From Acidobacteriota bacterium (GTDB lineage Bacteria > Acidobacteriota > UBA6911 > RPQK01 > CBDAPI01): a stretch of 64,000 bases of DNA. Both the position numbers and the translations under genes were made by a program. The DNA lies in the NCBI GenBank assembly GCA_965198355.1, contig CBDAPI010000015.1, positions 922,608 to 986,607 of the forward strand, given 5' to 3'. Position 1 is the first letter of the stretch, and each line of letters opens with the position of its first letter. The notes beneath the pieces are model-generated. The model was not told the origin of the DNA. It did no database searches and saw only the letters and a program-made list of their open reading frames with translations. Below, in pieces: positions 38,459-63,223 of this stretch.

Positions 38459-39632
38459 AACTGGCCTAGTGTGCTGTCCGATAAATTCCCGACGTTAACA
38501 TTGAGTGATTGATTCTCTCGCTTTTTTGACCTTTGCCAGGATGGAATCGGCGGTGGCGCGCCACTTGAAGGGCTTGGCCAAGTGTTGATTGTGGACTCGT
38601 ATGTATCGTCGGATCTCCTGTCGCAGATCTCGAACGCTGGTGAAGGAGTTGCGGTAGATGGAGCGACGCTCCAGCTGAGAGAACCAGGTCTCCACGGCAT
38701 TGAGCCAGGAGGCGCTGGTAGGAGTAAAGTGCAGGTGGAAGCGTTCTCGGCGCGCCAGCCAACTTCGAACCTTCTGGGTTTTGTGAGTACTGGAGTTGTC
38801 CAGGATGAGGTGAACGTCCAGATTGGGATCGAGCGCTTGATCGATCTGGCGTAAAAAGGCCAAGAATTCCTGGGCTCGATGCCGTTTCGTGATGCGCCCC
38901 ATCACCTCTCCCGTGGCCACATCGAAAGCGGCGTAAAGGCTAGCCGTGCCGTGCCGCTTGTAGTCGTGTGTTCGTCGCTCGATCTGTCCGGGTTTGAGCT
39001 GGAGCATGGGCTGGGTTCTATCCAGGGCTTGGATCTGGGTCTTCTCGTCCACGGATAAGACCAGAGCATTGTCAGGAGGGTCCATGTAAAGCCCGACGAC
39101 ATCGATCACCTTGTCGGCGAAATGAGGGTCGTGACTGATTTTGAAGTTGCGGATTCGATGAGGTTTCAGGTCGGCCGCCTTCCAGATCTGAGTGACCTGA
39201 TGGCGGCTCACTCCGGCGTACTCGGCCATCAGGCGCACACTCCAGAAGGTCGACTCACAGGGAACCCGTTGTACCGTGGCCTTGAGGATGGCTCGCACTT
39301 TGGCCGGCGCTAACTTTCGGGGGCGGCCTGAGCGAGGTTGATCCTCCAGTCCTGACAGTCCCTGCTGCAGGTAGCGTCGTCGCCACTTCTGAACAGTGAG
39401 CAAGCGCTTGGACAGTCTTTCAGACACCTGTGTTGCCGTTAACCCTTGGCCGCAAAGCAGGATCAACTCGGCCCTTTCGGCCAGACTGCGCCGGGTCTTG
39501 GAGGCTCGCAACCAGGAACGCAAAATCTCTCGATCGTCTTCGGGGAGTTGTAGTTGGATATGTGGTCTTGCCATACGGAATGATAGCGAAAAGCCCTGAC
39601 TATTAACATCGTGAACTTTCCGGACAGTACAC
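38459..39632 (-). mobile_element. IS630/Tc1-mariner-family insertion sequence with TA target duplication
   Basis: inverted repeats GTGTGCTGTCCGATAAATTCCCGACGTTAACA / reverse complement GTGTACTGTCCGGAAAGTTCACGATGTTAATA; TA on both flanks. Confidence 0.75.
38495..39574 (-). CDS. IS630-family DDE transposase (359 aa)
   Basis: HTH ...GLTATQVSERLSKRLLTVQKWRRRY...; DDE core ...LVLSVDEKTQIQA...LILDNSSTHK...WLNAVETWFS. Confidence 0.85.
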   Translation of the reverse strand: MARPHIQLQLPEDDREILRSWLRASKTRRSLAERAELILLCGQGLTATQVSERLSKRLLTVQKWRRRYLQQGLSGLEDQPRSGRPRKLAPAKVRAILKATVQRVPCESTFWSVRLMAEYAGVSRHQVTQIWKAADLKPHRIRNFKISHDPHFADKVIDVVGLYMDPPDNALVLSVDEKTQIQALDRTQPMLQLKPGQIERRTHDYKRHGTASLYAAFDVATGEVMGRITKRHRAQEFLAFLRQIDQALDPNLDVHLILDNSSTHKTQKVRSWLARRERFHLHFTPTSASWLNAVETWFSQLERRSIYRNSFTSVRDLRQEIRRYIRVHNQHLAKPFKWRATADSILAKVKKARESITQC

Positions 39633-40373
39633 TAAGGCTTTCGAGGAACGTACTTGAAATACCTGACCATAACTGCCGTATGCGAAGAGGGGCTCAGAAA
39701 GCCATTCGGGGTGTGCGGCCAAGAATTCACGAAATGCTCGCCTTTCCCCCCTGTCATCATCTGAGTCGAAGGCATTCCAATCATCGAAGATTATGATTGA
39801 TCCATCCAATAGCATATCAGCAATAAAACGTAATGCCTCCGACGAGGATGCGTAAAGATCACAGTCAATTAGGGTAAGGACTGCTTTGGATAAACCATAC
39901 TTTTCCTTGAGACTCGGGGTAAGTGTGTCTTCGTAGAATCCCGCGACTAAGATCGTGCGATTCCAATCAACGCCATGACGATCTAGCATTTTGCGAACGT
40001 AGTCTAGTTCCGCGCAGAACTGACCGCCGTAGAAGTCCCCCTTGTACGCATCGCTCCCATCGACATGCGGCAACCCGGCGAATGAATCCAGTCCAACAAA
40101 CTTCATGGAATGATTCCCCAACTGCCTCATATAACTCTGCGCATACCAAAAGGTAAAGCCACGGTAAACTCCAAATTCGAAGTAGTCTCCCTGGTCGTCG
40201 AGTCCCTGCTCGACAATCATTCTCATCGCTCGTGCGACCGCACCCGGTGTGCTTGCGTTGGCAGGTCGAAATCGCTTCGGAGAGATCTTGGCTTCCAGCC
40301 TTCTTGCCAAATCGCGTAAATGGAAGGCAGTGAGCGTTCGGCCGACCAAGGTTCGGATGCTATTTCGTGCCAT
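39603..40373 (-). CDS. TylF/MycF-family (macrocin-O-MT-like) sugar O-methyltransferase
   Basis: FEFGVYRGFTFWY...GLDSFAGLP...VLTLIDCDLYASSSEALRFIADMLLDGSIIIFDDW. Confidence 0.7.
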   Translation of the reverse strand: MARNSIRTLVGRTLTAFHLRDLARRLEAKISPKRFRPANASTPGAVARAMRMIVEQGLDDQGDYFEFGVYRGFTFWYAQSYMRQLGNHSMKFVGLDSFAGLPHVDGSDAYKGDFYGGQFCAELDYVRKMLDRHGVDWNRTILVAGFYEDTLTPSLKEKYGLSKAVLTLIDCDLYASSSEALRFIADMLLDGSIIIFDDWNAFDSDDDRGERRAFREFLAAHPEWLSEPLFAYGSYGQVFQVRSSKALVYCPESSRC

Positions 40374-40455
40374 CTCTACTCAGTCCGAAATCCCATGCTT
40401 GGACTCCCGAATCGGAGGGTGCGAACATTCCTAAGGAGAGCGTCTCTGGATGGCA

Positions 40456-40875
40456 TCAGAATTGGCCAAGTCGGAGCCTACTGTCCAACTGCTCTGCCAA
40501 ACGATGTGCCAAAGCGACGATCGTCAGCACAGGCCCCACCGCACCCCCCGTAACAAACGTTTCGCTCCCGCCGATATAGAGGTTGGGACATTCATGGACC
40601 CTCAGATTGCGATCGACCACACTCGTCGTTGGATTGTCTCCCATCCGGCAAGTTCCGATGTGGTGCCTGGAATAGGCTGGCGCAGCCTCCCGAATAACAT
40701 GAACTCCCAGTCGTCTAAATATCTCCAGCGTCAGCTCTCGGCAGCCAACCAACATTTTGCGATCTTCTTCGGTCAGATTGTAAGTCAGGTGCGCAAGAGG
40801 GTTCCCGAAGCAGTCCTTTGCGTTCTTGGATAGAGTGACACGGTTTTCGTCATCGGGTTTCATGCAGGAGGTCAT
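40456..40875 (-). CDS. GMC-oxidoreductase C-terminal domain protein (no FAD-binding N-domain); start overlaps the UPF0104 stop by 4 nt
   Basis: HHIGTCRMGDNPTTSVVDRNLRVHECPNLYIGGSETFVTGGAVGPVLTIVALAHRLAEQL. Confidence 0.5.
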   Translation of the reverse strand: MTSCMKPDDENRVTLSKNAKDCFGNPLAHLTYNLTEEDRKMLVGCRELTLEIFRRLGVHVIREAAPAYSRHHIGTCRMGDNPTTSVVDRNLRVHECPNLYIGGSETFVTGGAVGPVLTIVALAHRLAEQLDSRLRLGQF

Positions 40876-41849
40876 CCTGTGAGTCCAGACTCCTTGCTTC
40901 GACTGCCGCTCTGGACAAGAAACAAGAGACCCCCGATCAGGCCTAGGATGAGTACCGCGATTCGGGCTATCACTGCAACCAGCAAGGCCGCTGAGTCCTC
41001 CAGGCCGAGCCTCTCCAGATATAGGATGTACGAGCCTTCCTGAATGCCGATTCCGTTTAGCGAGATGGGAATCATGACCAGAAGCCCCAGTAAGGGCGCA
41101 AAGAACAGGAAGACAGCAAAGGAGGCGGTGGCGTTGACGGAAAGAACGAAGAAATAAATGGTCAAGCTCTTGAGGATATAGAAAACCAGTGAGAGGAGGA
41201 GAGCAATCGCGACGATCTTACCATGTCTTCGATAGAGAAGAAGGCTGGCCGAGAATTCCTCGAGGGCCCGCGCGACCTTTGGCAATCTCTTTTGCAGTAG
41301 CGCTTGGGTGTTCTTGACCAAAACCATCACGGCGAGAAATGAGCAGGAGCCGACTACGACTGCCAGTAGAATGAGCACTGCGAGGCTTTGAATGGAAACC
41401 AGTGAATCGGCGGCCAGCAGAAGAGCGAGACCGGAAACCAGTGCCAGGACAATGGCCATGAAGAAGCCGGTAGCTCGCTCAAAGACCACCGATGATACGA
41501 CCCCACCGGTCGAGGATTGACCGCGCACTTTGTAGACCCGAAAGACATCACCGCCCAAGGTTCCGGGCGTGAAGTTATTGAAGAACATCGACATCCACAT
41601 GAGGTTCAGGATTCTTAGTAGGGGAACACGTACGTCTTGTACTTCTAACAGCAGCTGCCATTTGTAGGCTCGAGAAAGCATGTTGACAAGCATGATCAGC
41701 AGGGCACAGCCAAACATGGAGACTCTGACCTGGCTCATTGCAGCCAGGGCGCCGCTGAGGTCTGTGCTCCAGATGATCAATGCGATGAGACCGATACTGA
41801 TGACAACTTTCAGCATCATTGGGATCTGGTGTCGCAAATTCTTCCTCAA
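40872..41849 (-). CDS. UPF0104 flippase-like membrane protein
   Basis: ...FFNNFTPGTLGGDVFRVYKVRGQSSTGG... Confidence 0.7.
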   Translation of the reverse strand: MRKNLRHQIPMMLKVVISIGLIALIIWSTDLSGALAAMSQVRVSMFGCALLIMLVNMLSRAYKWQLLLEVQDVRVPLLRILNLMWMSMFFNNFTPGTLGGDVFRVYKVRGQSSTGGVVSSVVFERATGFFMAIVLALVSGLALLLAADSLVSIQSLAVLILLAVVVGSCSFLAVMVLVKNTQALLQKRLPKVARALEEFSASLLLYRRHGKIVAIALLLSLVFYILKSLTIYFFVLSVNATASFAVFLFFAPLLGLLVMIPISLNGIGIQEGSYILYLERLGLEDSAALLVAVIARIAVLILGLIGGLLFLVQSGSRSKESGLTG

Positions 41850-41899
41850 TGTGGTGACTTGTTCTCTGCAATTCGAGGCTGACCTGCCCGGTAGGGTCG

Positions 41900-43860
41900 A
41901 GAGCTGGCGCGGTAGCCATCTCAGGCCCCGTTTCCAGCTCCCGCCTCGTCAAACACAGCATGCGGATTTCCCGCACTGCGCTTTCCTCTCGGCTTCACGA
42001 AAGGGCTTATGAGACCTATCGAGCTGGTTTGGCTATCGGCGGGGCTGAAAGCGCTGAACCCTGTACTGATCGTACAAGCCCAACTCCTGATACAGCCAGC
42101 GCCGACTCCACCTCTTCCAACCGAAGCCCCGGAGTTTCCGGGCACGCATCAGATGCCGTCGCACCTTCTTTTCCACCCAGTCACGAATGAAAGAGAAACA
42201 TCGACTCGAATGCCCTACCGCAAAGTAGTTGACCCAACCTCGAAGAATCGGGTTGATCAGTTCGATTACCCGCCCTATAGGTTGGGATTGAAAGCGCCGG
42301 AAGATCTCCTTGAGCTTCCGCACCAGTGCCGTTCGCTTTTTCAGCTTGGGCACATAATGCGGCCGCCACCGTCCCCGCAAGCTGCGCACACGGCGGAACT
42401 CAAAGCCCAGGAATCCAAAGCTTTCCCCTTTGCTCAGGTCTACGATTCGACTCTTCTCTTCATTGATCTCGACTCGGAGTTTGGCAAACTCCTCCCGGAG
42501 CCTCTGGCGTACCGCCCGTAGAAGCCAAGCATGCCGCCGATAGCCATCGATGAGAATGACCAGATCATCGGCGAACCGGGCATACTCCACATACGTGTAG
42601 CGGCCACTTCGCGTGACCCGTTTGGCCCGTTCCAGCATCCGATCCACTTCATTCAGGTAGAGATTAGCGATCAACGGTGAAATCACTCCACCCTGAGGAA
42701 CACCCCGTTTGCCACTCGCTTTCACGATCAGTTTTAGCAGGTGCAGGATCTCTCGATCCTGGACGCGTGCTGCCACTTTCTCAAACAAGATGTCGTGCCG
42801 GACGTTGTCGAAGTAGCACTTCAAATCCACGTCCACCACCCGGGTTTTGTTCTCCACAATGGCTTGAGCTACTCTGTGAACCGCCTGATGAGCGGTCCGC
42901 TTCGGGCGATAGCCATAGGACCCCTTTTGGAAGTCCGCCTCGAAGATGGGTTCCAGGATTAGCTTGAGCGCTCCCTGGACCACACGGTCCCGGATGGTCG
43001 GGATCGATAGAACGCGAGCTTTGCCCCCGTCCTTCGGAATCTCCTGCTTCCGGACCCGCTGCGGCTGATACTTGCGTGAGGTCAACTCGTCCCGGATCTG
43101 CTCGAGAAACTCCTCTACTCCACTCTCTTCGATGGCCTCGAAGCGAACCCCATCGATTCCGGGGGCTCCTTTGTTCTTCTTGGCCAATCGATAGGCTTCA
43201 CGAAGGGTTTCCATTTTGCAGACATGGACGTACAACCCCCAGAAACGCCAGGACGGTTCAGCCTTCGCCTTGACGTATATCCTCCGTCTCAGGTCTTGCA
43301 GATTGTCGGACGCCTTTATCATCTCGCCCCTGCCTCCCTTTGTCGACTGAGGAACTACCGACAGTTGGGTCCCTTCGCTCCACAGGCATTACCCGCGCTT
43401 CACAGCTAATACAGACCCATCCGCCACCCCTCTCGTCTTCGGCCGACTTCCCGGTGTCGCCGGTTATACGGCCTACCTTTCTCCGCGTCGATTTCTCGAC
43501 GGGACGAGGAGGGCTTCTCCAGTTGCTTGGCATGTCCTTGTCACCGTGCCGCCGCTTCCACCCCGCCGGAGTGGACCACCGCTTCAGTCAGTCTGCGGAA
43601 GTCCATGCTGCCTTCACCCTACGGTTGCAGGCTCGGCCTCCGAGGCTTCGCACTTTCGAGGCCACTTCTGCGTTCATTTGCATTACGGCCCAGTGACTCG
43701 CTCACCACCCTATAGATGGTTTTGTCGATGGGCTTCAAGGCTTTAGTTTCCCTCCACCCTGCCATCCAAGCTACAGAGCTTCTGACTTTTACCCTGGCAG
43801 GACTGACTCCTGCCGAACACACCAGCCTTAGCTGGACACACAGCCGCAATTGCTGCTTAC
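41900..43860 (-). mobile_element. bacterial group II intron (boundaries approximate) in the spacer between the epimerase and UPF0104 genes
   Basis: intron-encoded RT/maturase; domain-V-like GAAA hairpin on the minus strand (gcagtgcGGGAAATCCgcatgctg, ~41965-41990); candidate 5' GUGUG at ~43850. Confidence 0.6.
42033..43322 (-). CDS. group II intron reverse transcriptase/maturase (RT + domain X, no endonuclease domain)
   Basis: RT motifs ...RGVPQGGVISPLIANLYLNEVD...YVEYARFADDLVIL...; maturase ...ILRGWVNYFAVGHSS... Confidence 0.85.
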   Translation of the reverse strand: MIKASDNLQDLRRRIYVKAKAEPSWRFWGLYVHVCKMETLREAYRLAKKNKGAPGIDGVRFEAIEESGVEEFLEQIRDELTSRKYQPQRVRKQEIPKDGGKARVLSIPTIRDRVVQGALKLILEPIFEADFQKGSYGYRPKRTAHQAVHRVAQAIVENKTRVVDVDLKCYFDNVRHDILFEKVAARVQDREILHLLKLIVKASGKRGVPQGGVISPLIANLYLNEVDRMLERAKRVTRSGRYTYVEYARFADDLVILIDGYRRHAWLLRAVRQRLREEFAKLRVEINEEKSRIVDLSKGESFGFLGFEFRRVRSLRGRWRPHYVPKLKKRTALVRKLKEIFRRFQSQPIGRVIELINPILRGWVNYFAVGHSSRCFSFIRDWVEKKVRRHLMRARKLRGFGWKRWSRRWLYQELGLYDQYRVQRFQPRR

Positions 43861-43879
43861 GGCGGCCCCGAACATCGCT

Positions 43880-44854
43880 CTATAGATGGCCACTCTTCTT
43901 ATACCAAGCCGCCGTGAGACCGACTCCGGTAGGAACATCGATCACACTCTCGAAGCCGAGGAGCTCCGCGGCCTTGGTCACGTCAAATGAGACGGATCGG
44001 GTGAAAAAGTCCATGCTCCGCCGAAACAAGGGCGGCTTGATTCTCAGCAAGTTGCTCAGGTTTTCCGTGGCGCCACAGATGAATGTAATCGGCAGGGCAG
44101 GAAGCCGGATTCGGGGTGGCTTCACTCCGAGTTCACGGGCTACGATGTTGATGAGTTCCTTGAGACTAATGGCTTCACGACCCCCAATGATGACCACCTT
44201 TCCCAAGGCCTGATCGGCGCTGAGGCACAACTCGAACGCCCGACACAGATCGTCGATGTACACCAGGTGCTTCATGGTCTTCCCCGGATTGACGATAACC
44301 CCCCTCTTGACCATCCTGTAGAATTTCGCCTTGGCGTCGCCCGGACCGTACACTTGAGCGGGACGGACAACGATCAACGGCAGTCCATTTCGCCGATGGA
44401 ATTCCAAGGCAAGTTGCTCGGCTGCGCATTTGGTCTGCTCGTACTTGTCGTCAGGAGGCGCATAGGGTGTTTTCTCATCGTAAGGCGGATTGGATCCACT
44501 TGCGGCAACGCCAACTGTGCTGCAGTGAATGACCCGTCCGACGCCGCAGTGAAGAGCCGCCTCGAGGACGTGGCCGGTTCCCTCCACGTTGACCCTGTGA
44601 AATTCCTTCTTGGATGCCTCGGGGTTGTTGAAGAGTGCTGCCAAATGAATCACTGCATCGGCGCCGTCAAACGCGATCTCCAAAGAACCACGGTCAGTGA
44701 CGTCGCCGAGTCGGACGTCAAGATCAGCTGCTGGAAGTTCTTTCGCTCGCTGCAGCGTACGGTCAACCGGGATCACGGAGTACCCCCGCTGAATGAGGTG
44801 GTGACACAGGTTTCCGCCGACAAACCCGGAGGCTCCCGTAACAGCGACCTTCAT
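43880..44854 (-). CDS. NAD-dependent epimerase/dehydratase (SDR superfamily)
   Basis: MKVAVTGASGFVGGNLCHHLIQRGYSV...; YxxxK region. Confidence 0.8.
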   Translation of the reverse strand: MKVAVTGASGFVGGNLCHHLIQRGYSVIPVDRTLQRAKELPAADLDVRLGDVTDRGSLEIAFDGADAVIHLAALFNNPEASKKEFHRVNVEGTGHVLEAALHCGVGRVIHCSTVGVAASGSNPPYDEKTPYAPPDDKYEQTKCAAEQLALEFHRRNGLPLIVVRPAQVYGPGDAKAKFYRMVKRGVIVNPGKTMKHLVYIDDLCRAFELCLSADQALGKVVIIGGREAISLKELINIVARELGVKPPRIRLPALPITFICGATENLSNLLRIKPPLFRRSMDFFTRSVSFDVTKAAELLGFESVIDVPTGVGLTAAWYKKSGHL

Positions 44855-44954
44855 AACCTACTCCTTATCAGAAAACCGAACTGTTTGAACTGCATGAGAT
44901 GAAACTCCCTCCGGCTCAGCCGCAGGGTGACCTACTGAGCCCTCAGTATCTCAT

Positions 44955-45554
44955 TCAGCTTCCAAGGGTCGTCTCAGCTTGGGCGGGTCGGCTCCTCCGG
45001 CGGGTTAGGAACTGGACCAGCAGCACGACTGGAGCGATCACTGCAATCTCCGTCAAGATGGCCACCACATTCCTGAATTGAAGAATGCCAGCCAGCCAGC
45101 CGGAAGTTCCCGTCAGGGTCGACTTTGCATGGCTTGCGCCCAGCAATAGCTGAAAGCTGGATAAATAGTGTTCGTCCAGCACTGGCCAAAAGAGTGGAAT
45201 ACCGAAGGGTGGGCGTCGGTCCGGTCCCAGAAGGTCAATCAACAAATGGGACGTGTACGCCGCGAACAATGTCATCCAATTGCCAAGAAAATGACCCTGT
45301 AGCCAGCTACGGCAGAGCATGGTAACGATACAGCTGACTGCCAGAGCAAAGGCCAGGCTGTGGGAGATCCCCTGGTGGTAAAGGACTGGTAGACCGACGA
45401 GAAGACCCGGTAAGAAGTCCAGATCCGGAGCCATGGCCAGTAGAATACAAAGAAGAAACCAGCCGCCCGTGTGGTCATTCCGGCGACCCCTGACACGATA
45501 GACGGCATAACCTGCCAGCGCGTGGCCAATCGGGGTCGCCATCAATCTCTCCAA
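44955..45554 (-). CDS. DUF457 membrane-bound metal-dependent hydrolase-like protein
   Basis: MATPIGHALAGYAVY...multi-TM with His-rich loops. Confidence 0.5.
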   Translation of the reverse strand: MERLMATPIGHALAGYAVYRVRGRRNDHTGGWFLLCILLAMAPDLDFLPGLLVGLPVLYHQGISHSLAFALAVSCIVTMLCRSWLQGHFLGNWMTLFAAYTSHLLIDLLGPDRRPPFGIPLFWPVLDEHYLSSFQLLLGASHAKSTLTGTSGWLAGILQFRNVVAILTEIAVIAPVVLLVQFLTRRRSRPAQAETTLGS

Positions 45555-45624
45555 TTCTGCATGAGTTCAGCCAACGGGGTTTTTCGCACGCACCCGCGAT
45601 AGAGCTGGGAGAAGCCGGATCGTT

Positions 45625-47398: not shown

Positions 47399-47475
47399 TA
47401 AATGCTCCTTGAAATCAGTATTGACGAGACGGTCAGGAGATGGTTGAACCGAGGAGAAGATTTCACACCATTCCC

Positions 47476-48690: not shown

Positions 48691-48843
48691 TACGAGAATC
48701 CTGTTACAACGAAAGTCGCTGAATTATTGATGGCTGGATGTAAATGGTAACCGTCTCGAAAGTGAGATTGGTAACAGCGAGAGCCGAGGGGAATGGCTTG
48801 CCGCGGCAGGAGTTCGCTTACAACGGCTACTTTCTTTCCAAGT

Positions 48844-49605: not shown

Positions 49606-49630
49606 TCCCTTCCCGTCCTACGGCGGCCGA

Positions 49631-51364: not shown

Positions 51365-51403
51365 AATGGCTCTGACAGTGACTGTCGGTGCATTTGCGCT
51401 CAG

Positions 51404-54695: not shown

Positions 54696-54784
54696 TGATC
54701 TGTTCGCAACTCTTCACGAAGGGGCATCTTTTTTTGACCTCGTTCGTCGAGAGAATCCTGCTTTGCGGGACAGCTCATCTCATT

Positions 54785-56326: not shown

Positions 56327-56385
56327 GTATTAATCGAAATGAGGCCGCTGACCGCGATCGGCGGCGCTGGTGTGAAGTATTTTCT

Positions 56386-57675
56386 CTAGAAGCTTGGGCC
56401 ACCTTTGTCGCCTGCCGTCCCAAGACGCACCGTCTCAGAGGCCTGATCAGAACACCCGTCTTCGCCGATCTGGCCATTGAGCCCCAGCTCCCGGTAGACC
56501 TTCAGCGTCCGTGCAGCCACCTGCTCCCAGGAATGAGTTTGCTGAACCCAGTCACGAATTGGTTGACGGCGGCTCTCCAGGTTCGCAAAGAGATCACTCT
56601 CAAAATAGGTGCGCAACTTACGGGCAAGATCTCTCGAATCCCGTGAGCGGCACACGAAGCCCGTCTCGCCGTCTACCACACTCTCTCGTAAGGCCCCCAC
56701 ATCTGAGGCAATCACTGGGAGCCCCTGGTTGTAGGCGAGAAAGAGGACGCCACTCTGGTAGACTCGTGTGTAGGGGAGCACCAGAACATCCGCAGCCTGA
56801 AAATAGACACCCACTTCTTCCTCGGGCACGTGCTCAGGACGAATCGTGACCCAGTCTGAGAGCGGTTTCGTATTCATCAAGGTCTGCAGTCGGTCCCAAT
56901 ACCCGGGATCGTCTTTCACCCGTCCAACCACCAGCAACCTCACCGGCAGGGGACTCGACGTTCGCAACCTGCGAATCGCCTCCAGCGCATATTCGACACC
57001 CTTGTAGGGCGCCAGATTCCCAAAAAAGAGAACGATCCTCTCGTTCCCGTTCAAGCCAAACCGAGCCCGCGCATCCTCTTGCGACAGGGAGCTTATAGGG
57101 GTCACGTCATTAATAGGGAAAGGGATGACGGACACCTTCTCGGGCGCTGCGCCATACTCCTCCAGGAGTTCTGTTCTCATCGCTTCGGTATGTACGAAGA
57201 TGTGTTGAACCTGGCGGTAAAGAAAGCGCAGAGACCACGCATTCAGGGGGCTGATTTGGCCGTCGCGTACCCGCGTGTTCACATTGTGGACGGTGTACAC
57301 CAGTCGCTTTCCCAACGCTCGGTAGTAGAGAACCAGCAGCGTATTGTCAAAGCATTCGAACTTGTTGAACCATAAAATGTGGAGGATCGGCGTCTTCGAA
57401 AAGGCCGCGTACTGGATCAATCGCAGGTAGTAGCGGATCAAGCGCCATCCCTTTGCTCCCCACCAGACATTGGGTTTCTGGCAACCCCTCAGATTCAAGT
57501 AATTGACGAGAGGATCTGCGGCCACTGCGGCCGTCTTCATCTCATCGTTGGCTACGAAATCCACTTCTTGACTACAACGCACGAGGGCTTTGAGCAACCC
57601 CAATTCATAGTGGGGATCCTTGCCCGCTGTGAGAACCGCGACGGAGCTACTCACGGGCTTGAACTCGACTCGCAA
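56386..57675 (-). CDS. GT4-family glycosyltransferase
   Basis: ...FFGNLAPYKG...LVLPYTRVYQSGVLFLAYNQGLPVIASDVGALRESVVDGETGFV. Confidence 0.75.
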   Translation of the reverse strand: MRVEFKPVSSSVAVLTAGKDPHYELGLLKALVRCSQEVDFVANDEMKTAAVAADPLVNYLNLRGCQKPNVWWGAKGWRLIRYYLRLIQYAAFSKTPILHILWFNKFECFDNTLLVLYYRALGKRLVYTVHNVNTRVRDGQISPLNAWSLRFLYRQVQHIFVHTEAMRTELLEEYGAAPEKVSVIPFPINDVTPISSLSQEDARARFGLNGNERIVLFFGNLAPYKGVEYALEAIRRLRTSSPLPVRLLVVGRVKDDPGYWDRLQTLMNTKPLSDWVTIRPEHVPEEEVGVYFQAADVLVLPYTRVYQSGVLFLAYNQGLPVIASDVGALRESVVDGETGFVCRSRDSRDLARKLRTYFESDLFANLESRRQPIRDWVQQTHSWEQVAARTLKVYRELGLNGQIGEDGCSDQASETVRLGTAGDKGGPSF

Positions 57676-57962
57676 AAAGGGGACTCAGTTACGCCGAGGG
57701 TTGTGCATAAGGAAAGCTGGCGACTTACCGCACCCAAGACTTGTTCGACCGAAATCGAGTCCATGCAATTGGGTTTGAAATCGCACTCGGTCTTGTAGCA
57801 GACGAGACAGCTCAGCTCTGGAATGACTTTCTCTCCCTGCCCAAACAGTTCGATTTCATGGTGGCTGGTGGGACCGAAAAGAACGACCACCCGGACGCTA
57901 CGAGCCAATCCCACATGCATGGCTAGTGAGTCCCCTGAGATGAAACTACAGTAATTTATTCA
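57651..57962 (-). pseudogene. C-terminal ~100 aa of a GT9 (LPS heptosyltransferase-like) gene; N-terminal two-thirds replaced by the IS1 fragment
   Basis: ...FISGDSLAMHVGLARSVRVVVLFGPTS...CLVCYKTECDFKPNCMDSISVEQV. Confidence 0.5.
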
Positions 57963-57972
57963 CCAAAGTGTC

Positions 57973-58392
57973 TCAAAGTTGTTGACACGTTCCGTAAGAT
58001 GGAGAGAAGCCCCGAAAACGAGGAGTTCTCTCGTTCTTTTGTTTGCAGTGGACGAAGGACCAGATCTCGTCCGCCTGGACCTGATCTGCCGTGATGTTGC
58101 GGATCTTCTCGTCAAGAATGCGCTCACAGCGTTCTCCGGCCAGCGCAAGAACTCGGAGTACGGTTTCCTTGTGAACGAAAGTCAGACGCGAAGCAGCGTT
58201 GACCCCAACGCCTTCCACTAGCAGGTGGAGAATCTGAACGGCCTTTTCTTCGGAGATCCGCATGTCACCGAGCGGTCCTTCGGCCTTGAACGTCTTACCG
58301 CAGGACAGGCAGCGGTAACGCTGGACGGGTCCGTTGGCGGTTTTGAACTTGCCGGATTTCTTCGCGTGGGCTTTGCAGTAGCAGCATGTCAT
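57973..58392 (-). pseudogene. IS1-family transposase InsA-InsB' N-terminal fragment (139 aa)
   Basis: zinc ribbon CKAHAKKSGKFKTANGPVQRYRCLSCGKTF; HTH ...VGVNAASRLTFVHKETVLRVL; then ADEIWSFV (InsB start). Confidence 0.65.
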
Positions 58393-58762
58393 CGTGGGCC
58401 TTGCCTTTCGATGGCGACTGGCTCACAATGAATTTGTCTCGGCTATCCTGTGAGCAATCGCGGGTTAGTAAGATGGCCCCATCCGGTGTTATCAGCACTG
58501 GGTGGGGCTTTCGTTTCATGGACTCTATTAAACAACAAGCCTTGTTGTTTGTCAAGAGGAAAAACGCGGGTGGGATTCGAACCCAACGAAGTCGTGCTTA
58601 GGTCGACAAGTCCTTGCAAGGAACTTTCCTTGTCAAGTCAAAAGATAAGAATTGACACGGCGGTGGTGCCCTGATAGGGTTTGACACAGATACAGTGCTC
58701 CTTATTCATGCTTAGGTGAGGAGTGTTCTTGGAGGCCCGATGCTTGTAACATCGGGCCTTCC

Positions 58763-59227
58763 TCAGCTCATTCCAGATTGTCTCTCCCGTAGGCTGACAG
58801 TAATCTTGCCGTGTCGCTTTCTCATCTGAAAAAGCCCCTTTGAATTCCGGCGCACCGCAGCATCCAAGCTAGCCCTGTGGATCTTCTTTCCGTGAGCCAC
58901 GATTGCCTCATACAGCTGAGTCATGGTCTTTGGGCCAAACTCGCTGAGAATCTCGACGGCCACTTCAGGAATGCTGCCTTGATACACTCCCTTATCTTCC
59001 AGTTGTTGTCCCGCCGACATGCCTTCAGCGGATTTCATGTCAGCGCCAGTATCGTTCTTGGAGAAACCGTAAGCCTTAAGCCACGCTTGATTGGCCTGTA
59101 CGCACTCTTGAAGACTGACGACTCGCGATTCAAGTTGTCGTAGTTCGTTTTCATCGCGACCCAATTCAATCTTAATACTTTTCGCAATCTCAGATTTAGT
59201 CATCATGTGCAAGTCCTCCGACCGCAC
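58763..59227 (-). CDS. hypothetical protein (AT-richer, possibly remnant of a foreign element)
   Basis: ORF only. Confidence 0.3.
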   Translation of the reverse strand: MRSEDLHMMTKSEIAKSIKIELGRDENELRQLESRVVSLQECVQANQAWLKAYGFSKNDTGADMKSAEGMSAGQQLEDKGVYQGSIPEVAVEILSEFGPKTMTQLYEAIVAHGKKIHRASLDAAVRRNSKGLFQMRKRHGKITVSLRERQSGMS

Positions 59228-59329
59228 TTAGTCTACTACTCATCTCACGGCTTAGTCAAGCCAGTGCTACGCTGTGGTTTAGATGGCTGATGGCTTAAAT
59301 GGATTGACCTGCCTTGTCACAGCCATATG

Positions 59330-59497
59330 CTACGAGGCGATCCTCGGCGGACGCCCACCAGCTTTAGTCTTACGCTTTGCTTGCAGTCGGCGATAATATT
59401 CAGGTCCGCGTTTGGCGGTTTTCTTACCGCCGATCCTGCCGGACTCGGCTACGATGAGTTTTTTAGGGATGGTTTTTCCGCAGTGTGGACATTTCAT
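59330..59497 (-). CDS. 55-aa basic CxxC zinc-ribbon-like small protein (below the ORF-track size cutoff)
   Basis: MKCPHCGKTIPKKLIVAESGRIGGKKTAKRGPEYYRRLQAKRKTKAGGRPPRIAS. Confidence 0.3.
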   Translation of the reverse strand: MKCPHCGKTIPKKLIVAESGRIGGKKTAKRGPEYYRRLQAKRKTKAGGRPPRIAS

Positions 59498-59530
59498 GCA
59501 CGGAAGAATACTACAAGGGTTGTTGATAGT

Positions 59531-60325
59531 CTAGTGGTGGGCACAATCTAACAGACCACTACCCTCCTCTGGATGGAGCATGCTGGGATCAAAGGAGCTC
59601 TCTGTGAACTCACAAAGTAAAGAAACCTCCCGCTCGGGATTCAAAAGGAGGGTTTCAAAGCGAAAGACGGCGTAGTTGGGCAGAGCCACATAACGACGGT
59701 GGATACGGGAAGCCCAGATGTACTGCGCAACACTCATAGCCATTGTCAGTTTTCTGATTAACGTTGCCATCCTTGGATGCTGCCTGACTCTGACTTGTGT
59801 TCCGCCGGGATCATTCTGACGCGACGCTGCAATTGCACGCGGATCCCGGATAACGTGCACGATCTTTGCGTCGGGATACCAATCCAACAACTCAGGGAGC
59901 CAATTCAAATGGACTGGAAATTTCGCACAAAACCGCATATAACCCATGCGCCTTGTGATCTCTTCGAGCGTCACTCGGAAAATCCCAGACAACGATCTGT
60001 CCGACTGCCACATCGCGTCCTTCAGACGCCGAAGAAACTGCGAGTCGTCGGAGAGAGGCTTGATGTCGAGCTTCCAAAACGATCCGGCGAGGCCCGGCAC
60101 CGATTTCATAGCGAACATTAAGTCGACAATTCTATCCACATCGCTCTTTTCTGTCAGGCCGCCGCCGTATCTTCTGAGAAAATATCGAAAGTCTCGCCGG
60201 AATGGCATCGTCAGATAGAGCATCTCACCCGAGAACCGGAAGATCTCCGGATGTTTCTTGAAGAGATTTAGCCACAATGTACTGCCGGAACGCGGTAGTC
60301 CGAGTATAAAAATGGGCTTATTCAT
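59531..60325 (-). CDS. sulfotransferase (PAPS-dependent; 5'-PSB motif)
   Basis: MNKPIFILGLPRSGSTLWLNLF... Confidence 0.7.
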   Translation of the reverse strand: MNKPIFILGLPRSGSTLWLNLFKKHPEIFRFSGEMLYLTMPFRRDFRYFLRRYGGGLTEKSDVDRIVDLMFAMKSVPGLAGSFWKLDIKPLSDDSQFLRRLKDAMWQSDRSLSGIFRVTLEEITRRMGYMRFCAKFPVHLNWLPELLDWYPDAKIVHVIRDPRAIAASRQNDPGGTQVRVRQHPRMATLIRKLTMAMSVAQYIWASRIHRRYVALPNYAVFRFETLLLNPEREVSLLCEFTESSFDPSMLHPEEGSGLLDCAHH

Positions 60326-60661
60326 TCAAGCGTCCATTGTCATACCATTGCGGGCAGAGAGAGGAGATTGCCGTGATCGAAGTCAGCAACGGGGCGTGTG
60401 AGAAGAAGGTCCTAGAAGTGACGCGCCCCCGAACTCCCGAACCAGATTGTATGAGAGTCTGTAGTTCGTGTTTCCCATCCGGGTTCAGACCGACTGAACC
60501 TTCTCGCAGTACCTTAGAGCTGGCAAAAAGGCCGGTCACCTACCCACTCCCGCGACATGAAGGCTCGGCTCAACTGGATTGGTGTGACTCTGACACGAAA
60601 AAAACTACTGCTTATGGGTCGTTACGCCGAAGATTGGTCGGAGGAGCCGGAGCCTCGCCCT

Positions 60662-60986
60662 GTGTCAATGGATGAGGGTATGGATACGGACTGTAACCGG
60701 GCCTTGGCACGTCGTCGAAGTAGTCCTCGCCCGCCTTTATCTGATCCGAAGGTGCGGGGTCATAACAGATATCCGCGACAAAGACAAGCGCAGGCTGAGG
60801 GCTGCCAGCCCACCATCGCCGAAGATCTGTGTCAATGGATGAGGGTATGGATACGGACTGTAACCGGGCCTTGGCACGTCGTCGAAGTAGTCCTCGCCCG
60901 CCTTTATCTGATCCGAAGGTGCGGGGTCATGACAGATATCCGCGACAAAGACAAGCGCAGGCTGAGGGCTGCCAGCCCACCATCGC
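60662..60986 (+). repeat. ~160-bp perfect tandem duplication (2 copies, 1 mismatch) covering the 3' end of the FkbH-like gene
   Basis: 60662-60820 = 60828-60986 (tgtgtcaatggatgagggtatggatacggactgtaacc...cccaccatcgcc). Confidence 0.85.
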
Positions 60987-62537
60987 CTCTTCGATACGCC
61001 GGCCCATGACGCGGCAGCTCAGGATAAAGTCCACAATTCTGGCCCTGCCGCCCTCCAGGCTCAGGCTGGCGATGCCCGACAGACCCGAGTCCCCGAACTT
61101 ATCCGCAACTCGGAAGGTCCAGACCTGGTTGTCATCAACCGTGGCCCAGGCCAGGTACCCCGCCCGAGTCATCCGCCGGGTACTCAGGTTCATCTGGTTG
61201 GTTTTGTTGAGCAGTTGCACTGCTCTTTCCAGATTCGACTCACTCAGTGGCTCAGCTATGACCCGAATGTCCAGCGTCTTCAACCAGTCGTCCAGGGACC
61301 GGACCCCTCGTCTCTGCTCCACTCGCTTTCGCTCGGCTACATACATCCCGGTTCGACTGCGATCCTCTGCCCCGAGAGAAGCGGTGTCGAAACAATCCAG
61401 ACTGAGAAGGGCGCTGCTGTAGAGCAGCGGGTTCTGAGGCCACTCCGGTACTAGAACCTCGGGCAGCGCTTCGCCAACACGAGAGCGCTCAACCGGGTTG
61501 TCGTCGAGAAAGACCGTGGAGTCCAGGCCCAGGTTCAAATCTGCTACCAGATCGACAATGTTTTGAGCCTTATCGTTCCAGTTGATTCGCCAGCCCGCAA
61601 AGTCGTCCACGCCAAGGATCATTTCGGGATGCCGGGCAATTGCCTCCAAGGCGTTTGATTCTTCGTTCTTGCTCGCGATTCCCAGCAGGACACCACGGTT
61701 GGTCAGATCTTTTAAGGCTTTCTGAAAGTCGAGGTAGGCTTCTCCCACTGGATCATGGCCGCCAAGTCGAAGGTTGCGCCACCCCACCTCTCCGACGATC
61801 CCTCCCCACAGGGTTTCATCCAGATCGACTACGATCAGCTTTCGGGTGAGACCCTGCAGCGCCCTGAGAGCCGCCTTGATTTCCTCTGCCGCCACCTTGA
61901 ATGTCTCTGTGTCGAAGGGTGTCTTCGACATGTACCACAGTCTGGGGCTGTAGCAATCCGCACCGACCCGGCTGAGCCAGCCCTGGGCATTGAGTACGAA
62001 AATGGAACCACTTTCTTGGAAGTTCTCGATCAATGTCGAGTTCATGCGCAGCAGAGTCCCGAAAAGACCGCTGGGGTGAGAGAGGTCGATCAAGCCAAGC
62101 CCTCTGAGTAGAGGTGGTAGCGTCCAGCACGGGACAAAGACAGCCTTGAGGCCGTCCGCGGCCTTCGACACCAGCCCGCAGAACTCGTCCACTTCCTCAC
62201 GGATCTTAGCAGCGGAGACACTCTTGAAAGTCAGGGTCTGATTGAAAGTCTCAACGGCGGCCTCCGGTCGGGTCCAGACGACAAGCACGTCGGGATCTTG
62301 CTCCCAGAATTCCGCGTTGGCGCCCATCAGGGTCGGCACGGTCTGGCCAAAAGGCGCCACAACCGGTTGGACAGAGGGAAGCTCCGAAGAATTCCGCAGG
62401 AGCGAGGCTAGATTGTCGAGGTTGAAGTCGGACACTAGTCCAACTGTCCACGAATGCTCATTTGCCACCAGAGTAGGCTCGTTGTTCCGAAGCGTCGAAG
62501 ATGAATGTGGCTGAGGAGTAGTGCTCAAACTCTTCAT
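60927..62537 (-). CDS. FkbH-like HAD-IIIC phosphatase-domain protein; C-terminus modified by the tandem duplication
   Basis: LIVVDLDETLWGGIVGEVG...LLGIASKNEESNALEAI...VFLDDNPVER. Confidence 0.7.
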   Translation of the reverse strand: MKSLSTTPQPHSSSTLRNNEPTLVANEHSWTVGLVSDFNLDNLASLLRNSSELPSVQPVVAPFGQTVPTLMGANAEFWEQDPDVLVVWTRPEAAVETFNQTLTFKSVSAAKIREEVDEFCGLVSKAADGLKAVFVPCWTLPPLLRGLGLIDLSHPSGLFGTLLRMNSTLIENFQESGSIFVLNAQGWLSRVGADCYSPRLWYMSKTPFDTETFKVAAEEIKAALRALQGLTRKLIVVDLDETLWGGIVGEVGWRNLRLGGHDPVGEAYLDFQKALKDLTNRGVLLGIASKNEESNALEAIARHPEMILGVDDFAGWRINWNDKAQNIVDLVADLNLGLDSTVFLDDNPVERSRVGEALPEVLVPEWPQNPLLYSSALLSLDCFDTASLGAEDRSRTGMYVAERKRVEQRRGVRSLDDWLKTLDIRVIAEPLSESNLERAVQLLNKTNQMNLSTRRMTRAGYLAWATVDDNQVWTFRVADKFGDSGLSGIASLSLEGGRARIVDFILSCRVMGRRIEEAMVGWQPSACACLCRGYLS

Positions 62538-63223
62538 GCCTTAGCATCTCCGTCAACACACTTAAACGCTACGAACGCGAAAGTCCTATCCGCGCAGACA
62601 GGGCTAAACTCTAGTCCGCTTTCCTCCATAAACTCTTGGAATGCTCGAGGCTCGTGGTCAATATGGTTCATTTCGTCGAAGTAAATAAACGTACCTGGGC
62701 GAATGAACGGCCGGAGGTGCCGGAGGACGAAGATTGTCGACGAATATAGATCGGCGTCCATATTAAGGACCAGCGTCTCGTGCTTTGGCATACTGTGATT
62801 TGGCAGGACTTGATCAAACCAGCCTTTGAAGAATTTTACTCGTGGATCAGAGATCAAGGGGATCTGTTCTCCGAGGTCGAACCTGCCCTTCTCCCAAGGC
62901 CCACCAGCTTCAGGCAGCCCTTCAAAGCTGTCAAAGCCATGAAGGATCGAATCAGGGTTTTTCAATTCACGGGACCAAAATTCGGTAGCCGCTCCCTTGA
63001 AGACCCCGAATTCGAGATATAGAACCTGATCGCAACGAACTGATTTAAGGATCTCCGTCCATACCTGGCGGCGATTGCCCACTTGTTTGGGAAACCTGAA
63101 TCCACGATCGGACATCCATCTCCCGATGGCCAGATAGTTCCATCCCGCTCTTAGTTGATATACAGCCCAGGTGGGAAGATATCCGCCGATTAGTGCGAGG
63201 ATTTGTTTGGTGAGATACAGCAT
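62534..63223 (-). CDS. TylF-family O-methyltransferase (second copy)
   Basis: ...GFDSFEGLP...KGWFDQVLP...LVLNMDADLYSSTIFVLRHL...GTFIYFDEM. Confidence 0.7.
   Translation of the reverse strand: MLYLTKQILALIGGYLPTWAVYQLRAGWNYLAIGRWMSDRGFRFPKQVGNRRQVWTEILKSVRCDQVLYLEFGVFKGAATEFWSRELKNPDSILHGFDSFEGLPEAGGPWEKGRFDLGEQIPLISDPRVKFFKGWFDQVLPNHSMPKHETLVLNMDADLYSSTIFVLRHLRPFIRPGTFIYFDEMNHIDHEPRAFQEFMEESGLEFSPVCADRTFAFVAFKCVDGDAKA

Follow-up and report, generated by a model that had tools for sequence, protein, structure and literature searches.

A 64,000-nucleotide stretch of an Acidobacteriota genome (contig CBDAPI010000015.1, positions 922,608 to 986,607; "the window" is this whole 64-kb stretch) carries a glycan locus of ~24 kb at positions 39603-63223. 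We describe its gene families, the fold of its polytopic glycosyltransferase, its synteny, its genomic context and its lesions, and we use these to propose what the locus makes. Families were assigned by Pfam and NCBIfam profile searches of the open reading frames (ORFs) of the window, and membership in the Nod, GlpD and PrsK/PrsR classes was judged on the curated NCBIfam equivalog cut-offs. All of the long ORFs of the locus lie on the minus strand, and every gene class that an initial annotation, made from the sequence alone, had listed here is present. That annotation had also described the spacers as short or overlapping, which is true (−4 to 153 nt) except around a group II intron and in 57676-60927. 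In minus-strand order, the features of the locus are as follows.

62534-63223, minus strand: TylF-type O-methyltransferase (b), the first gene of the locus (PF05711 54.9 bits, PF13578 34.6 bits)
60927-62537, minus strand: FkbH-like HAD-IIIC protein, truncated at the 3' end (TIGR01686 246.7 bits, cut-off 146.65)
59531-60325, minus strand: sulfotransferase, truncated at the 3' end (PF13469 85.4 bits)
57676-59562, no strand assigned: foreign or scar segment with small ORFs (among them a 154-aa ORF) and then an insertion sequence (IS) fragment of the IS1 type
56386-57675, minus strand: family 4 glycosyltransferase, GT4 (b) (PF13692, PF00534)
54785-56326, minus strand: Wzx-type repeat-unit flippase (PF13440 156.6 bits; 11 hydrophobic segments)
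52596-54695, minus strand: polytopic glycosyltransferase of the GT-C fold, 699 aa (by fold search)
51404-52477, minus strand: ArnC/GtrB/PgfS-like family 2 glycosyltransferase, GT2 (full-length ArnC and PgfS profile matches)
49631-51364, minus strand: GlpD/GlpO-like FAD flavoprotein (DAO and DAO_C domains)
48844-49605, minus strand: class I S-adenosylmethionine (SAM) methyltransferase (PF13489)
47476-48690, minus strand: GT4 (a) (PF00534 124 bits)
45625-47398, minus strand: NodU/CmcH-family carbamoyltransferase in two frames, 46799-47398 and 45625-46812 (Pfam N and C domains)
44955-45554, minus strand: YdjM-family membrane protein (PF04307 67.5 bits)
43880-44854, minus strand: NAD-dependent epimerase/dehydratase of the short-chain dehydrogenase/reductase (SDR) type (PF01370 145.8 bits)
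41900-43841, minus strand: complete group II intron (reverse transcriptase/maturase, D1-D4 RNA, domain V/VI, GUGUG)
40872-41849, minus strand: UPF0104/LPG_synthase_TM "flippase-like" protein (PF03706 141.6 bits, TIGR00374 85.2 bits; 9 hydrophobic segments)
40456-40875, minus strand: remnant of a GMC oxidoreductase (PF05199, GMC_oxred_C, only)
39603-40373, minus strand: TylF-type O-methyltransferase (a), the last gene before an IS630 element (PF05711 56.9 bits)

These genes fall into three modules. The first is a TylF/FkbH-like/sulfotransferase block at the prsR-proximal end, which is scarred by mobile DNA; the second holds Wzx, a GT4, and the ArnC-like GT2 with the GT-C protein; and the third runs from the GlpD-like flavoprotein through the SAM methyltransferase, GT4, carbamoyltransferase, YdjM, SDR and UPF0104 genes to the GMC remnant. 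The two TylF methyltransferases are only 29% identical to each other, and the 3' end of TylF (b) overlaps the start of the FkbH-like gene by 4 nt. Thirteen genes are full-length, with 86-100% ortholog coverage: Wzx, GT-C, GT2, the GlpD-like flavoprotein, the SAM methyltransferase, both GT4, SDR, YdjM, UPF0104, both TylF, and prsR, which adjoins the locus. The initial annotation counted three UPF0104 genes, and the family is right, but two of them lie outside 39603-63223 and one of these (4722-5252) is a fragment. The IS200 and IS630 elements that it regarded as absorbed into the locus are both outside it as well.

The locus abuts regulatory genes of the PEP-CTERM class, and an exosortase gene and a PEP-CTERM gene lie 11-13 kb beyond its far (non-prsR) end:

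63387-64000, minus strand, running off the end of the window: 3' part of prsR, the PEP-CTERM-box sigma-54 response regulator (TIGR02915)
27736-28626, minus strand: exosortase of the EpsH family (PF09721 160.7 bits, cut-off 25.7; TIGR02602 127 bits, cut-off 105.55)
26852-26867, plus strand: sigma-54 promoter TGGCACCCGAATTGCT, the sole perfect consensus match in the window
26931-27545, plus strand: gene for a PEP-CTERM protein of 204 aa (PF07589 23.8 bits, cut-off 20.7)

The 175 C-terminal residues of PrsR that the window encodes (edge ORF 63387-63914) match TIGR02915 at 195 bits. The rest of the gene is found on a sibling contig (L001; ENA ERZ25071889 contig_44), which encodes an identical FkbH-like protein and is 100% identical to window positions 60827-64000 (3174 nt). 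There, full-length prsR scores 580.2 bits (cut-off 502.6) and prsK, upstream of it, scores 400 bits against TIGR02916 (cut-off 300), so prsK-prsR stands directly upstream of the glycan locus and on the same strand. Past prsK and prsR, the sibling contig carries IS1380, a hexapeptide acyltransferase and PrsT-like tetratricopeptide-repeat (TPR) proteins, which score 183 and 74 bits against the PrsT model (TIGR02917) and so fall below its cut-off of 312. The exosortase passes the family cut-offs but none for a subtype (XrtC, the best, 168.7 bits vs. 300; XrtA, TIGR03109, 132.6 bits vs. 208); an XrtA may be encoded elsewhere in the genome. The PEP-CTERM protein ends in VPEPGTLLLLGAGLLGLPLVRRLSGR, that is, VPEP, a transmembrane (TM) segment and RR. 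The sigma-54 site ends 63 nt before the ATG of its gene, which fits the pattern reported for PEP-CTERM genes, where the mean distance of such sites is 71 nt (Haft et al. 2006, PMC1569441). Because of the prsK-prsR pair upstream and the exosortase and PEP-CTERM genes nearby, we file the locus under PEP-CTERM/exosortase EPS (exopolysaccharide) loci. This is a known and widespread class that, to our knowledge, has not been studied biochemically.

Two other features of this context should be mentioned. A sigma-54 site with one mismatch, CGGCACGAGAGTTGCT, lies at 18282-18297 (plus strand), about 350 nt upstream of a second carbamoyltransferase gene. Also, two large leucine-rich-repeat (LRR) proteins of the XopAE/internalin-like kind are encoded between the exosortase and the glycan locus (29278-31755 and 31824-33170, minus strand).

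The GT2 matches the ArnC profile over positions 7-309 of 316 (E = 3e-57) and the PgfS profile over 3-305 of 308 (E = 1e-47), in both cases below the equivalog cut-off. It has DXD motifs and two C-terminal TM helices (at ~278-300 and 307-335), and is predicted from these matches to be a polyprenyl-phosphate sugar synthase. Its neighbor, the 699-aa protein, was confirmed by fold search to have the GT-C fold, although its identity to the matches is 8-16% and the likeness is at the level of the fold only. The initial annotation called it ArnT/PMT-like. The fold agrees with this, but the protein falls short of the family thresholds for ArnT (GT83) and PMT (GT39): it scores 22.0 bits against PF13231 (PMT_2; cut-off 26.1), it has no NCBIfam match, and a profile search of Protein Data Bank (PDB) sequences with its family returned no GT-C match. 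ArnT, ALG and Aft enzymes score alike in the fold search, so the fold does not discriminate the acceptor. D71-E72 in the first loop are invariant in the family, which comprises 946 clusters (at 50% identity and E ≤ 1e-30), nearly all of 640-730 aa, with members in Gemmatimonadota, Verrucomicrobiota, Acidobacteriota, Nitrospirota, Ignavibacteria, Steroidobacteraceae, Salinisphaera and others. The best relative in GTDB is 35% identical to the protein of the window, and the closest relative, P0002, is 48% identical.

We collected 79 GT-C loci from many phyla, called their ORFs and clustered the neighbors. An ArnC-like GT2 that is 40-50% identical to that of the window occurs in 40 of the 79, and it is within two genes of the GT-C gene in 33 (28 of the 55 loci that have full flanks). 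The arrangement in relatives is often GT2-GT2-GT-C. Because this synteny is conserved across many phyla, it supports a real functional pairing of GT2 and GT-C. Wzx-type genes are found in 39 of the 79 loci and GT4 genes in 36 (GT4 (b) of the window is 57% identical to the GT4 of one such locus, L002), and other recurring neighbors are Wzz, a BY-kinase-like ATPase, Poly_export, a second type of GT2 and heparinase-like proteins. As the GT-C homologs sit among Wzx, Wzz, Poly_export and GT4, they point to polysaccharide loci rather than protein-glycosylation loci, and the couple bears the signature of the "three-component" logic of Gtr and Arn systems acting on polysaccharides. The earlier suggestion that GT2, GT-C and flippase-like proteins work together thus holds for the GT2-GT-C pair, but UPF0104 is near GT-C in only 6 of the 79 loci (in the window it is 11 kb away) and no flippase for the pair was identified among the window's genes. 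A gene of ~325 aa that follows many GT-C homologs on the 3' side was considered as UPF0104 and rejected, as it is a GT2. The outcome is a family of ~950 clusters that is tightly coupled to an ArnC-like GT2 and has no characterized member.

In Nitrospira and other Nitrospirales (L014, L015, L018, L019, L030 and L081), a conserved run follows the GT-C homolog on the 3' side. It starts with a GT2 (~325 aa), continues with a ~573-aa protein that has an APH phosphotransferase domain and another protein of ~493 aa, and ends with two GT4. By its gene content, this run hints at a phosphorylated glycan in these nitrite oxidizers.

The GlpD-like flavoprotein has thousands of relatives; the closest are 52-57% identical, ~570 aa long, and annotated as glycerol-3-phosphate (G3P) dehydrogenase. 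We looked up the surroundings of six of these independently (L083, L085, L086, L087, L091 and L092), scored co-occurring genes by tblastn with the proteins of the window, and drew on these six loci and the GT-C loci for our counts. All six relatives lie inside EPS loci, accompanied by the following homologs of window genes.

SDR: 5 of the 6 loci, adjacent in 4 (32-36% identity)
SAM methyltransferase: 5 of the 6 loci (54-63% identity)
GT4 (a): 5 of the 6 loci (43-49% identity)
UPF0104: 3 of the 6 loci (26-30% identity in L083 and L085; in L092 by the Pfam LPG_synthase_TM annotation only)
Carbamoyltransferase: 2 of the 6 loci (57-63% identity in the C-terminal part)
YdjM: 2 of the 6 loci (L092, 40% identity, next to the SDR; also L083)
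Full GMC oxidoreductase: 1 of the 6 loci (L087, 60% identity)
ArnC-like GT2: 1 of the 6 loci (52% identity)

This cassette recurs in the EPS loci of four phyla, including Desulfobacterota, Acidobacteriota and Planctomycetota. The closest in content is an acidobacterial locus (L092) with the order GlpD-like, methyltransferase, GT4, UPF0104, carbamoyltransferase, Asn synthase, SDR and YdjM, which is nearly the gene set of window positions 40872-51364 in a rearranged order. Two observations tie individual genes together: the SDR and the methyltransferase are fused in a 578-aa protein (L085, 9862-11598; Scalinduaceae metagenome-assembled genome GCA_046759445.1), which at the sequence level is a Rosetta-stone link between the two activities, and the GT4 and GlpD-like genes overlap in L086. 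Around the cassettes we find Bac_transf, Poly_export, GNVR, a kinase, a DUF3473 deacetylase, AAA_22, Asn synthase, and a histidine kinase with a sigma-54 regulator, which is the usual set of PEP-CTERM-type EPS loci. Given this recurrence, nearly every gene that looked unusual in the window belongs to a recurrent toolbox of this class of loci. The UPF0104 gene tracks the GlpD-like cassette and not GT-C. Neither the GT-C family, the signature of the GlpD-like protein nor the linkage of UPF0104 is unique to this window.

That signature sets the GlpD-like protein apart from GlpD and GlpO. Its best NCBIfam equivalog score is 230 bits, where 360 would be needed for membership. An alignment of the subfamily has FSRD, GVWH and GVRATTARG as invariant or nearly invariant motifs at positions where the solved GlpD and GlpO enzymes have KG[IV]H, GTTD and GGK[LI]T.YR (in short form, KG[IV]H becomes SRD[VLA], GTTD becomes GVWH, and GGKxT becomes GVRAT). 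Because of the changed motifs and the missed cut-offs, it is probably not a plain G3P dehydrogenase. What we see is a GlpD/GlpO homolog with a remodeled signature of putative active-site motifs that occurs only in EPS loci and nearly always beside an SDR, a methyltransferase and a GT4.

The carbamoyltransferase of the window is indeed frameshifted, as was first noted: it has exactly one extra C at ~46819 (CC to CCC) and is otherwise intact. An intact 591-aa ortholog in L092 aligns at 58% identity up to 46820 and at 64% from 46818. The frameshift must have arisen by very recent mutation, or else be an error of the assembly. The "intact paralog" that was pointed out at 18677-20257 is intact, but it is only ~30% identical to the copy in the locus. 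Together with genes for two phosphoesterases, an AraC regulator and a 925-aa DUF11/DUF7507 protein, it lies between two inverted IS1380 copies (7610-9266 and 20292-21948, 99.5% identical), which bracket ~11 kb and look like a composite transposon; the paralog may be acquired cargo. The GMC remnant consists of the C-terminal domain only and is 60% identical to the C-terminus of the full 513-aa enzyme in L087. The group II intron occupies the SDR-UPF0104 intergenic spacer and is oriented like the operon, with its reverse transcriptase/maturase at 42033-43322, D1-D4 RNA at 43678-43815 (118.8 bits), domain V/VI at 41906-41985 (35.1 bits, E = 1e-4) and GUGUG at 43841. Being complete and intergenic, it should be able to splice.

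The prsR-proximal block has fared worse. FkbH-like proteins of this family are ~560 aa long and very conserved (53-63% identity), yet in the window homology ends at residue 496 of 558-571, at about position 60978. Compared with relatives P0032 (63% identical) and P0042 (58%), 60-75 C-terminal residues are missing; they are nowhere in the window, including the other frames, and the tail that replaces them, "GWQPSACACLCRGYLS", is unrelated. A direct duplication lies at the point where the gene is broken:

60660-60820 and 60827-60987, no strand assigned: 161-nt direct duplication with a 6-nt spacer, at the break of the FkbH-like gene; a single copy in the sibling contig

Relatives carry an ORF of 76-106 aa beside the FkbH-like gene; no ORF resembling an acyl carrier protein (ACP) is near the gene in the window. 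With a truncated domain protein and no ACP-like partner nearby, the window's protein cannot be counted among the FkbH glyceryl-ACP loading enzymes. The sulfotransferase is 264 aa long, vs. 307 aa in the sibling contig, and lacks the last 52 residues. Its first 255 aa equal the protein of the sibling contig, and the two sequences diverge at window position 59562. The sibling contig continues with a TuaG-like GT2 that is not in the window, and ~1.9 kb in the window (57676-59562) replaces this GT2 and the 3' end of the sulfotransferase gene. The replacing segment contains a fragment of an IS1 transposase (57973-58392; NF033558 58.8 bits, below the cut-off of 100), the unassigned 154-aa ORF (58763-59227) and a 55-aa zinc-ribbon-like ORF. 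So, the initial annotation was right that an FkbH-like protein and a sulfotransferase are present, but both genes have lost their 3' ends. Its statement that the locus absorbed mobile DNA without losing collinearity does not hold, as the sibling has a GT2 where the window has foreign DNA and the gene order differs from that of the orthologous cassettes. Window and sibling contig thus differ by an IS3 insertion, the 161-nt duplication, and the replaced GT2 and sulfotransferase end, and such remodeling by mobile elements is typical of surface-polysaccharide hot spots.

Several further observations concern this block. Each copy of the 161-nt duplication holds a terminator-like hairpin (60957-60980 and 60790-60813; region 11551-11923 of the sibling contig). 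The IS3-family element of the sibling contig (11927-13237) lies between its FkbH-like and sulfotransferase genes, at the equivalent of window position 60447/60448, while in the window the same element (99.9%) sits at 5864-7174; these positions indicate recent IS movement between near-identical strains. As for FkbH-like proteins in the other EPS loci, L091 (14849-17720) has an FkbH_N protein, an ORF of ~76 aa and a hexapeptide transferase, and in the matching place L086 (9805-12614) and L087 (13508-16234) have an AMP-/acyl-ligase, an ORF of ~80 aa (ACP) and a hexapeptide transferase. This swap suggests alternative acyl or glyceryl loading for acylation of the polysaccharide.

Four lesions thus mark the locus: the truncations of the FkbH-like gene and of the sulfotransferase gene, the 1-nt insertion in the carbamoyltransferase gene, and the GMC remnant. 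Mobile DNA accounts for the damage to the FkbH-like and sulfotransferase block and to the GMC gene, and this strain has probably lost some of its capacity for decoration. The initial annotation stressed carbamoylation, sulfation and methylation together. The gene families are there, but since three to four decoration genes are damaged, it is doubtful that all three modifications act on one product in this strain.

Taking these results together, we think that the region is probably the glycan-assembly arm of a PrsK/PrsR-associated EPS locus of the exosortase/PEP-CTERM type, with its three modules forming a mosaic, and the evidence supports its being one glycan-assembly locus. Of the ideas first put forward, a "highly modified glycolipid/EPS system" is the one that fits the neighborhoods. 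We infer the substrates, the order of steps, and the action of all of the genes on one polymer from gene content, and the pathway would run as follows. At the cytoplasmic face, a repeat unit would be assembled by the two GT4 on undecaprenyl diphosphate, which would need a priming phosphoglycosyltransferase encoded elsewhere. The soluble enzymes that depend on SAM, carbamoyl phosphate or 3'-phosphoadenosine 5'-phosphosulfate (PAPS) would act on cytoplasmic intermediates only. Wzx would flip the repeat unit, and polymerization and export would need Wzy and Wza/Wzc from outside the window. In parallel, the ArnC-like GT2 would load polyprenyl phosphate with a single sugar, the sugar-lipid would be flipped, and GT-C would attach the sugar to the periplasmic polymer as a branch, following Gtr/Arn logic. 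The cassette has a core of the GlpD-like protein, SDR, SAM methyltransferase and GT4, to which the carbamoyltransferase, UPF0104, YdjM and GMC oxidoreductase are accessory. Its most likely product is a single modified sugar or lipid-linked intermediate, formed by oxidation/reduction, O-methylation and O-carbamoylation. There is a precedent in three-component systems, where lipid-linked donors undergo auxiliary modification (Kelly et al. 2024, PMC11127046).

A number of results weigh against this proposal. No Wzy, priming phosphoglycosyltransferase, Wza/Wzc or O-antigen ligase was found in Pfam and NCBIfam scans of the ORFs of the 64-kb window, the same scans showed no Wzz, and a hydropathy scan of all window ORFs of at least 100 aa gave no further polytopic Wzy-like candidate. 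The missing Wzy, priming transferase and Wza/Wzc may lie outside the window, but with the polymerase, priming and export genes missing, this sequence does not yield a complete pathway. No GtrA, SMR or MATE flippase was recognized in the window or as a conserved neighbor of GT-C. None of the six GlpD-like cassettes has a GT-C within 8-10 kb, and the product served by the cassette may therefore not be that of the GT-C pair. On the regulatory side, a search of the window found no sigma-54 promoter ahead of the first gene of the locus and there is a terminator-like hairpin 3' of prsR, so control of the locus by PrsR does not follow from the adjacency. Between the exosortase and the near end of the locus lie 11 kb with LRR genes and IS elements, and by score the exosortase is not of the XrtA subtype. 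Heptose and GT9 genes adjoin a relative locus, L002, and their presence there points to lipopolysaccharide (LPS). Finally, the 1-nt frameshift in the carbamoyltransferase could be an assembly error.

Some of these points lend themselves to another explanation, that the locus, or at least its Wzx-GT4-GT2-GT-C part, serves to make LPS O-antigen or capsule. GT-C would then add an O-antigen side sugar as Gtr systems do, and the adjacency of prsK and prsR would be incidental. In the locus of the closest GT-C relative (P0002, 48%), GmhA, HldE and a GT9 heptosyltransferase come next, the promoter and hairpin results just described fit as well, and gene families alone cannot separate Wzx-dependent O-antigen loci from EPS loci. 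We consider this explanation unlikely, though, because the window has no WaaL, Wzy or LPS-core gene, the orthologous cassettes stand with the EPS/PEP-CTERM markers Poly_export, GNVR, BY-kinase, DUF3473 deacetylase, AAA_22 and Asn synthase, and prsK-prsR is directly upstream on the same strand. Marginally less unlikely is that the cassette builds a separate decorated glycolipid (for instance, of a glycosylated phosphatidylglycerol type) that UPF0104 flips to the outer leaflet, as in GpgSDF. A GT4 and UPF0104 pair has been tied by experiment to the synthesis of GlcN-phosphatidylglycerol (PMC12713373), and the UPF0104 domain is the lipid-flippase domain of MprF (PplT; preprint 10.1101/2022.03.11.483950). 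UPF0104 accompanies the cassette in 3 of 6 loci and GT-C in just 6 of 79, a homolog of glycerol-phosphate oxidase would suit a glycerophosphate head group, and there is the GT4/GlpD-like overlap in L086. Yet the cassette includes no deacetylase or lipid-synthesis gene, the motifs of the GlpD-like protein differ from those of true G3P enzymes, and the cassette is always embedded in EPS loci.

General protein O-glycosylation in the periplasm, with a PMT-like GT-C acting on PEP-CTERM or giant surface proteins, was also raised by the initial annotation, and we find it very improbable. The GT2 does resemble PgfS of the streptococcal protein-glycosylation machinery (E = 1e-47), and a PEP-CTERM substrate is encoded nearby, but the fold does not reveal the acceptor (ArnT, ALG and Aft score alike), PMT_2 is below the Pfam cut-off, and across the 79 loci the GT-C homologs keep company with Wzx, Wzz, Poly_export and GT4. 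Nor do the giant proteins carry the signal: among the ORFs as called, the 925-aa, 1528-aa, LRR and BamB-like proteins have no PEP-CTERM tail, and the only one in the window is that of the 204-aa protein (26931-27545), so the proposed link to giant surface proteins has no support. Somewhat more credible, though still improbable, is that the locus is a non-functional relic, eroded by mobile elements, that yields no product in this strain. The four lesions, the IS1 fragment, group II intron, IS630 and IS200 in or beside the locus, the differences from the sibling contig (an IS3 insertion and a GT2 gene), and the lack of priming, polymerizing and export genes in the window would be expected of a relic. 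What argues for a working locus is that the thirteen full-length genes retain 86-100% ortholog coverage, that the intron is intergenic and complete and so can presumably splice, and that the frameshifted carbamoyltransferase has no other defect. An EPS assembly arm that has probably lost some of its decorations is the reading we prefer.

For the cassette itself, we can also imagine something more novel, which we put forward as a doubtful but specific idea: that the core of GlpD-like protein, SDR, SAM methyltransferase and GT4, with the carbamoyltransferase, UPF0104 and YdjM as accessories, forms an unrecognized pathway in which the GlpD-like protein and SDR act as a redox pair, a non-homologous analog of DprE1/DprE2, on a lipid-linked substrate, with UPF0104 flipping the product. 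A neo-functionalized homolog of G3P oxidase and the SDR would oxidize a hydroxyl adjoining a phosphate ester and then reduce it again; the substrate would be a lipid-linked sugar or a glycerophospho-glycolipid. O-methylation and O-carbamoylation would follow, and then flipping by the MprF-type UPF0104 protein. If this is true, the product could serve exosortase-type EPS, or the PEP-CTERM proteins themselves, as a dedicated primer, anchor or donor lipid.

Three other features of the window are of interest. A heptamer-based motif, AATCCGAAATCCGAA, occurs at 11 sites with up to 2 mismatches, vs. 0.16 expected (the sites include 18021, 20267, 29251-29272, 33197-33218, 34089-34110, 63328-63342 and 63395-63416). 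All are intergenic or at the ends of genes or IS elements, with two in the spacer between prsR and the first gene of the locus, and the motif may be REP-like or mark the site of a regulator. The truncated UPF0104 gene (4722-5252; positions 52-216 of 302 of LPG_synthase_TM) adjoins a fragment like GINT1_N, the N-domain of glucosamine inositolphosphorylceramide transferase (E = 7e-12), within a low-GC (43%) segment at 4156-5252 (plus strand); the two fragments seem to be what is left of one more glycolipid-type gene pair. Immediately upstream of the second UPF0104 gene, a 237-nt direct duplication (33184-33420 and 34076-34313) flanks a 646-nt element (33430-34075, a copy of 619-1263). This has the look of a rearrangement, or of an insertion whose target duplication is unusually long.

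How does the locus compare with known systems? The decoration genes had been likened to those of Nod factors, but the likeness is at the superfamily level only and the curated scores are far below the cut-offs. We rejected membership, with NodU at 94.4 bits vs. 1000 (scored on the intact paralog, 18635-20257, and not on the frameshifted copy in the locus), NoeE at 30 vs. 500, and NodC at 31.9 vs. 550. The methyltransferase had no NodS match in NCBIfam.

DprE1/DprE2 is the mycobacterial decaprenyl-phospho-ribose 2'-epimerase. GlpD chemistry oxidizes the hydroxyl adjoining the phosphate-bearing carbon, and this formally matches the DprE1 step. In both cases a flavin oxidase and an NAD(P)H reductase are encoded beside a polyprenyl-phosphate sugar synthase and a GT-C, but the flavoprotein families are unrelated (DAO/GlpD vs. 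VAO/PCMH) and the redox pair of the cassette mostly has no GT-C nearby, so the likeness is purely an analogy. With GlpD and GlpO themselves (PDB 2qcu, 2rgh and 3da1), the flavoprotein shares full-length homology (E = 1e-37 to 1e-47), the DAO and DAO_C domains, the FAD-binding GxGxxG and the HGGIRYL motif. It differs in its score (230 vs. 360 bits), in the changed subfamily motifs, and in its setting, which is EPS synthesis and not glycerol catabolism.

GpgSDF, which makes GlcN-phosphatidylglycerol in P. aeruginosa with a GT4 and a UPF0104 protein that presumably flips the lipid (PMC12713373), and HexSDF of C. difficile (PMC10128005) also combine a cytoplasmic glycosyltransferase, a modifying enzyme and a flippase-like protein of the UPF0104/MprF type. 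The likeness is one of gene content: the locus here has no deacetylase, its modifiers are the GlpD-like protein, SDR, methyltransferase and carbamoyltransferase, and the genes are part of an EPS locus rather than a three-gene operon.

The three-component systems include GtrA/B/C of Salmonella and Shigella, ArnC/E/F/T, CsbB/GtcA/YfhO and the pentofuranose systems (Kelly et al. 2024, PMC11127046). The locus departs from them in that no GtrA, SMR or MATE flippase was identified in the window, its relatives often have GT2-GT2-GT-C, and its GT-C belongs to a separate family, with PMT_2 below the cut-off and no profile match to solved structures. It agrees with them in having a GT2 with C-terminal TM helices in synteny with a GT-C that bears an acidic motif in its first loop, in the placement of the pair within Wzx-type loci, and in the auxiliary redox enzymes nearby, which recall the epimerases that act on lipid-linked donors.

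The closest likeness in context is to the exosortase EPS class with PrsK-PrsR-PrsT regulation (Haft et al. 2006, PMC1569441), which includes the floc-formation loci of Zoogloea and Aquincola (PMC9850573). The differences are that the exosortase is not XrtA by score (XrtC is best, below its cut-off), that the PrsT-like proteins are below the cut-off, that the priming transferase, Wzy and Wza/Wzc are not in the window, that several genes are broken, and that the GT2/GT-C pair and the tailoring genes are absent from the 2006 model. The locus shares with this class prsK and prsR that pass the equivalog cut-offs, an exosortase, a PEP-CTERM gene with a sigma-54 site at the typical distance, and a large EPS gene cluster next to them, and its orthologous cassettes are found among DUF3473 deacetylase, GNVR, BY-kinase, AAA_22, Asn synthase and acyl-ligase/ACP genes. 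An open-ended reading, that of an exotic decorated glycan, can thus be replaced by a concrete one, in which the locus is probably the variable glycan arm of an EPS system with PrsK/PrsR and an exosortase.

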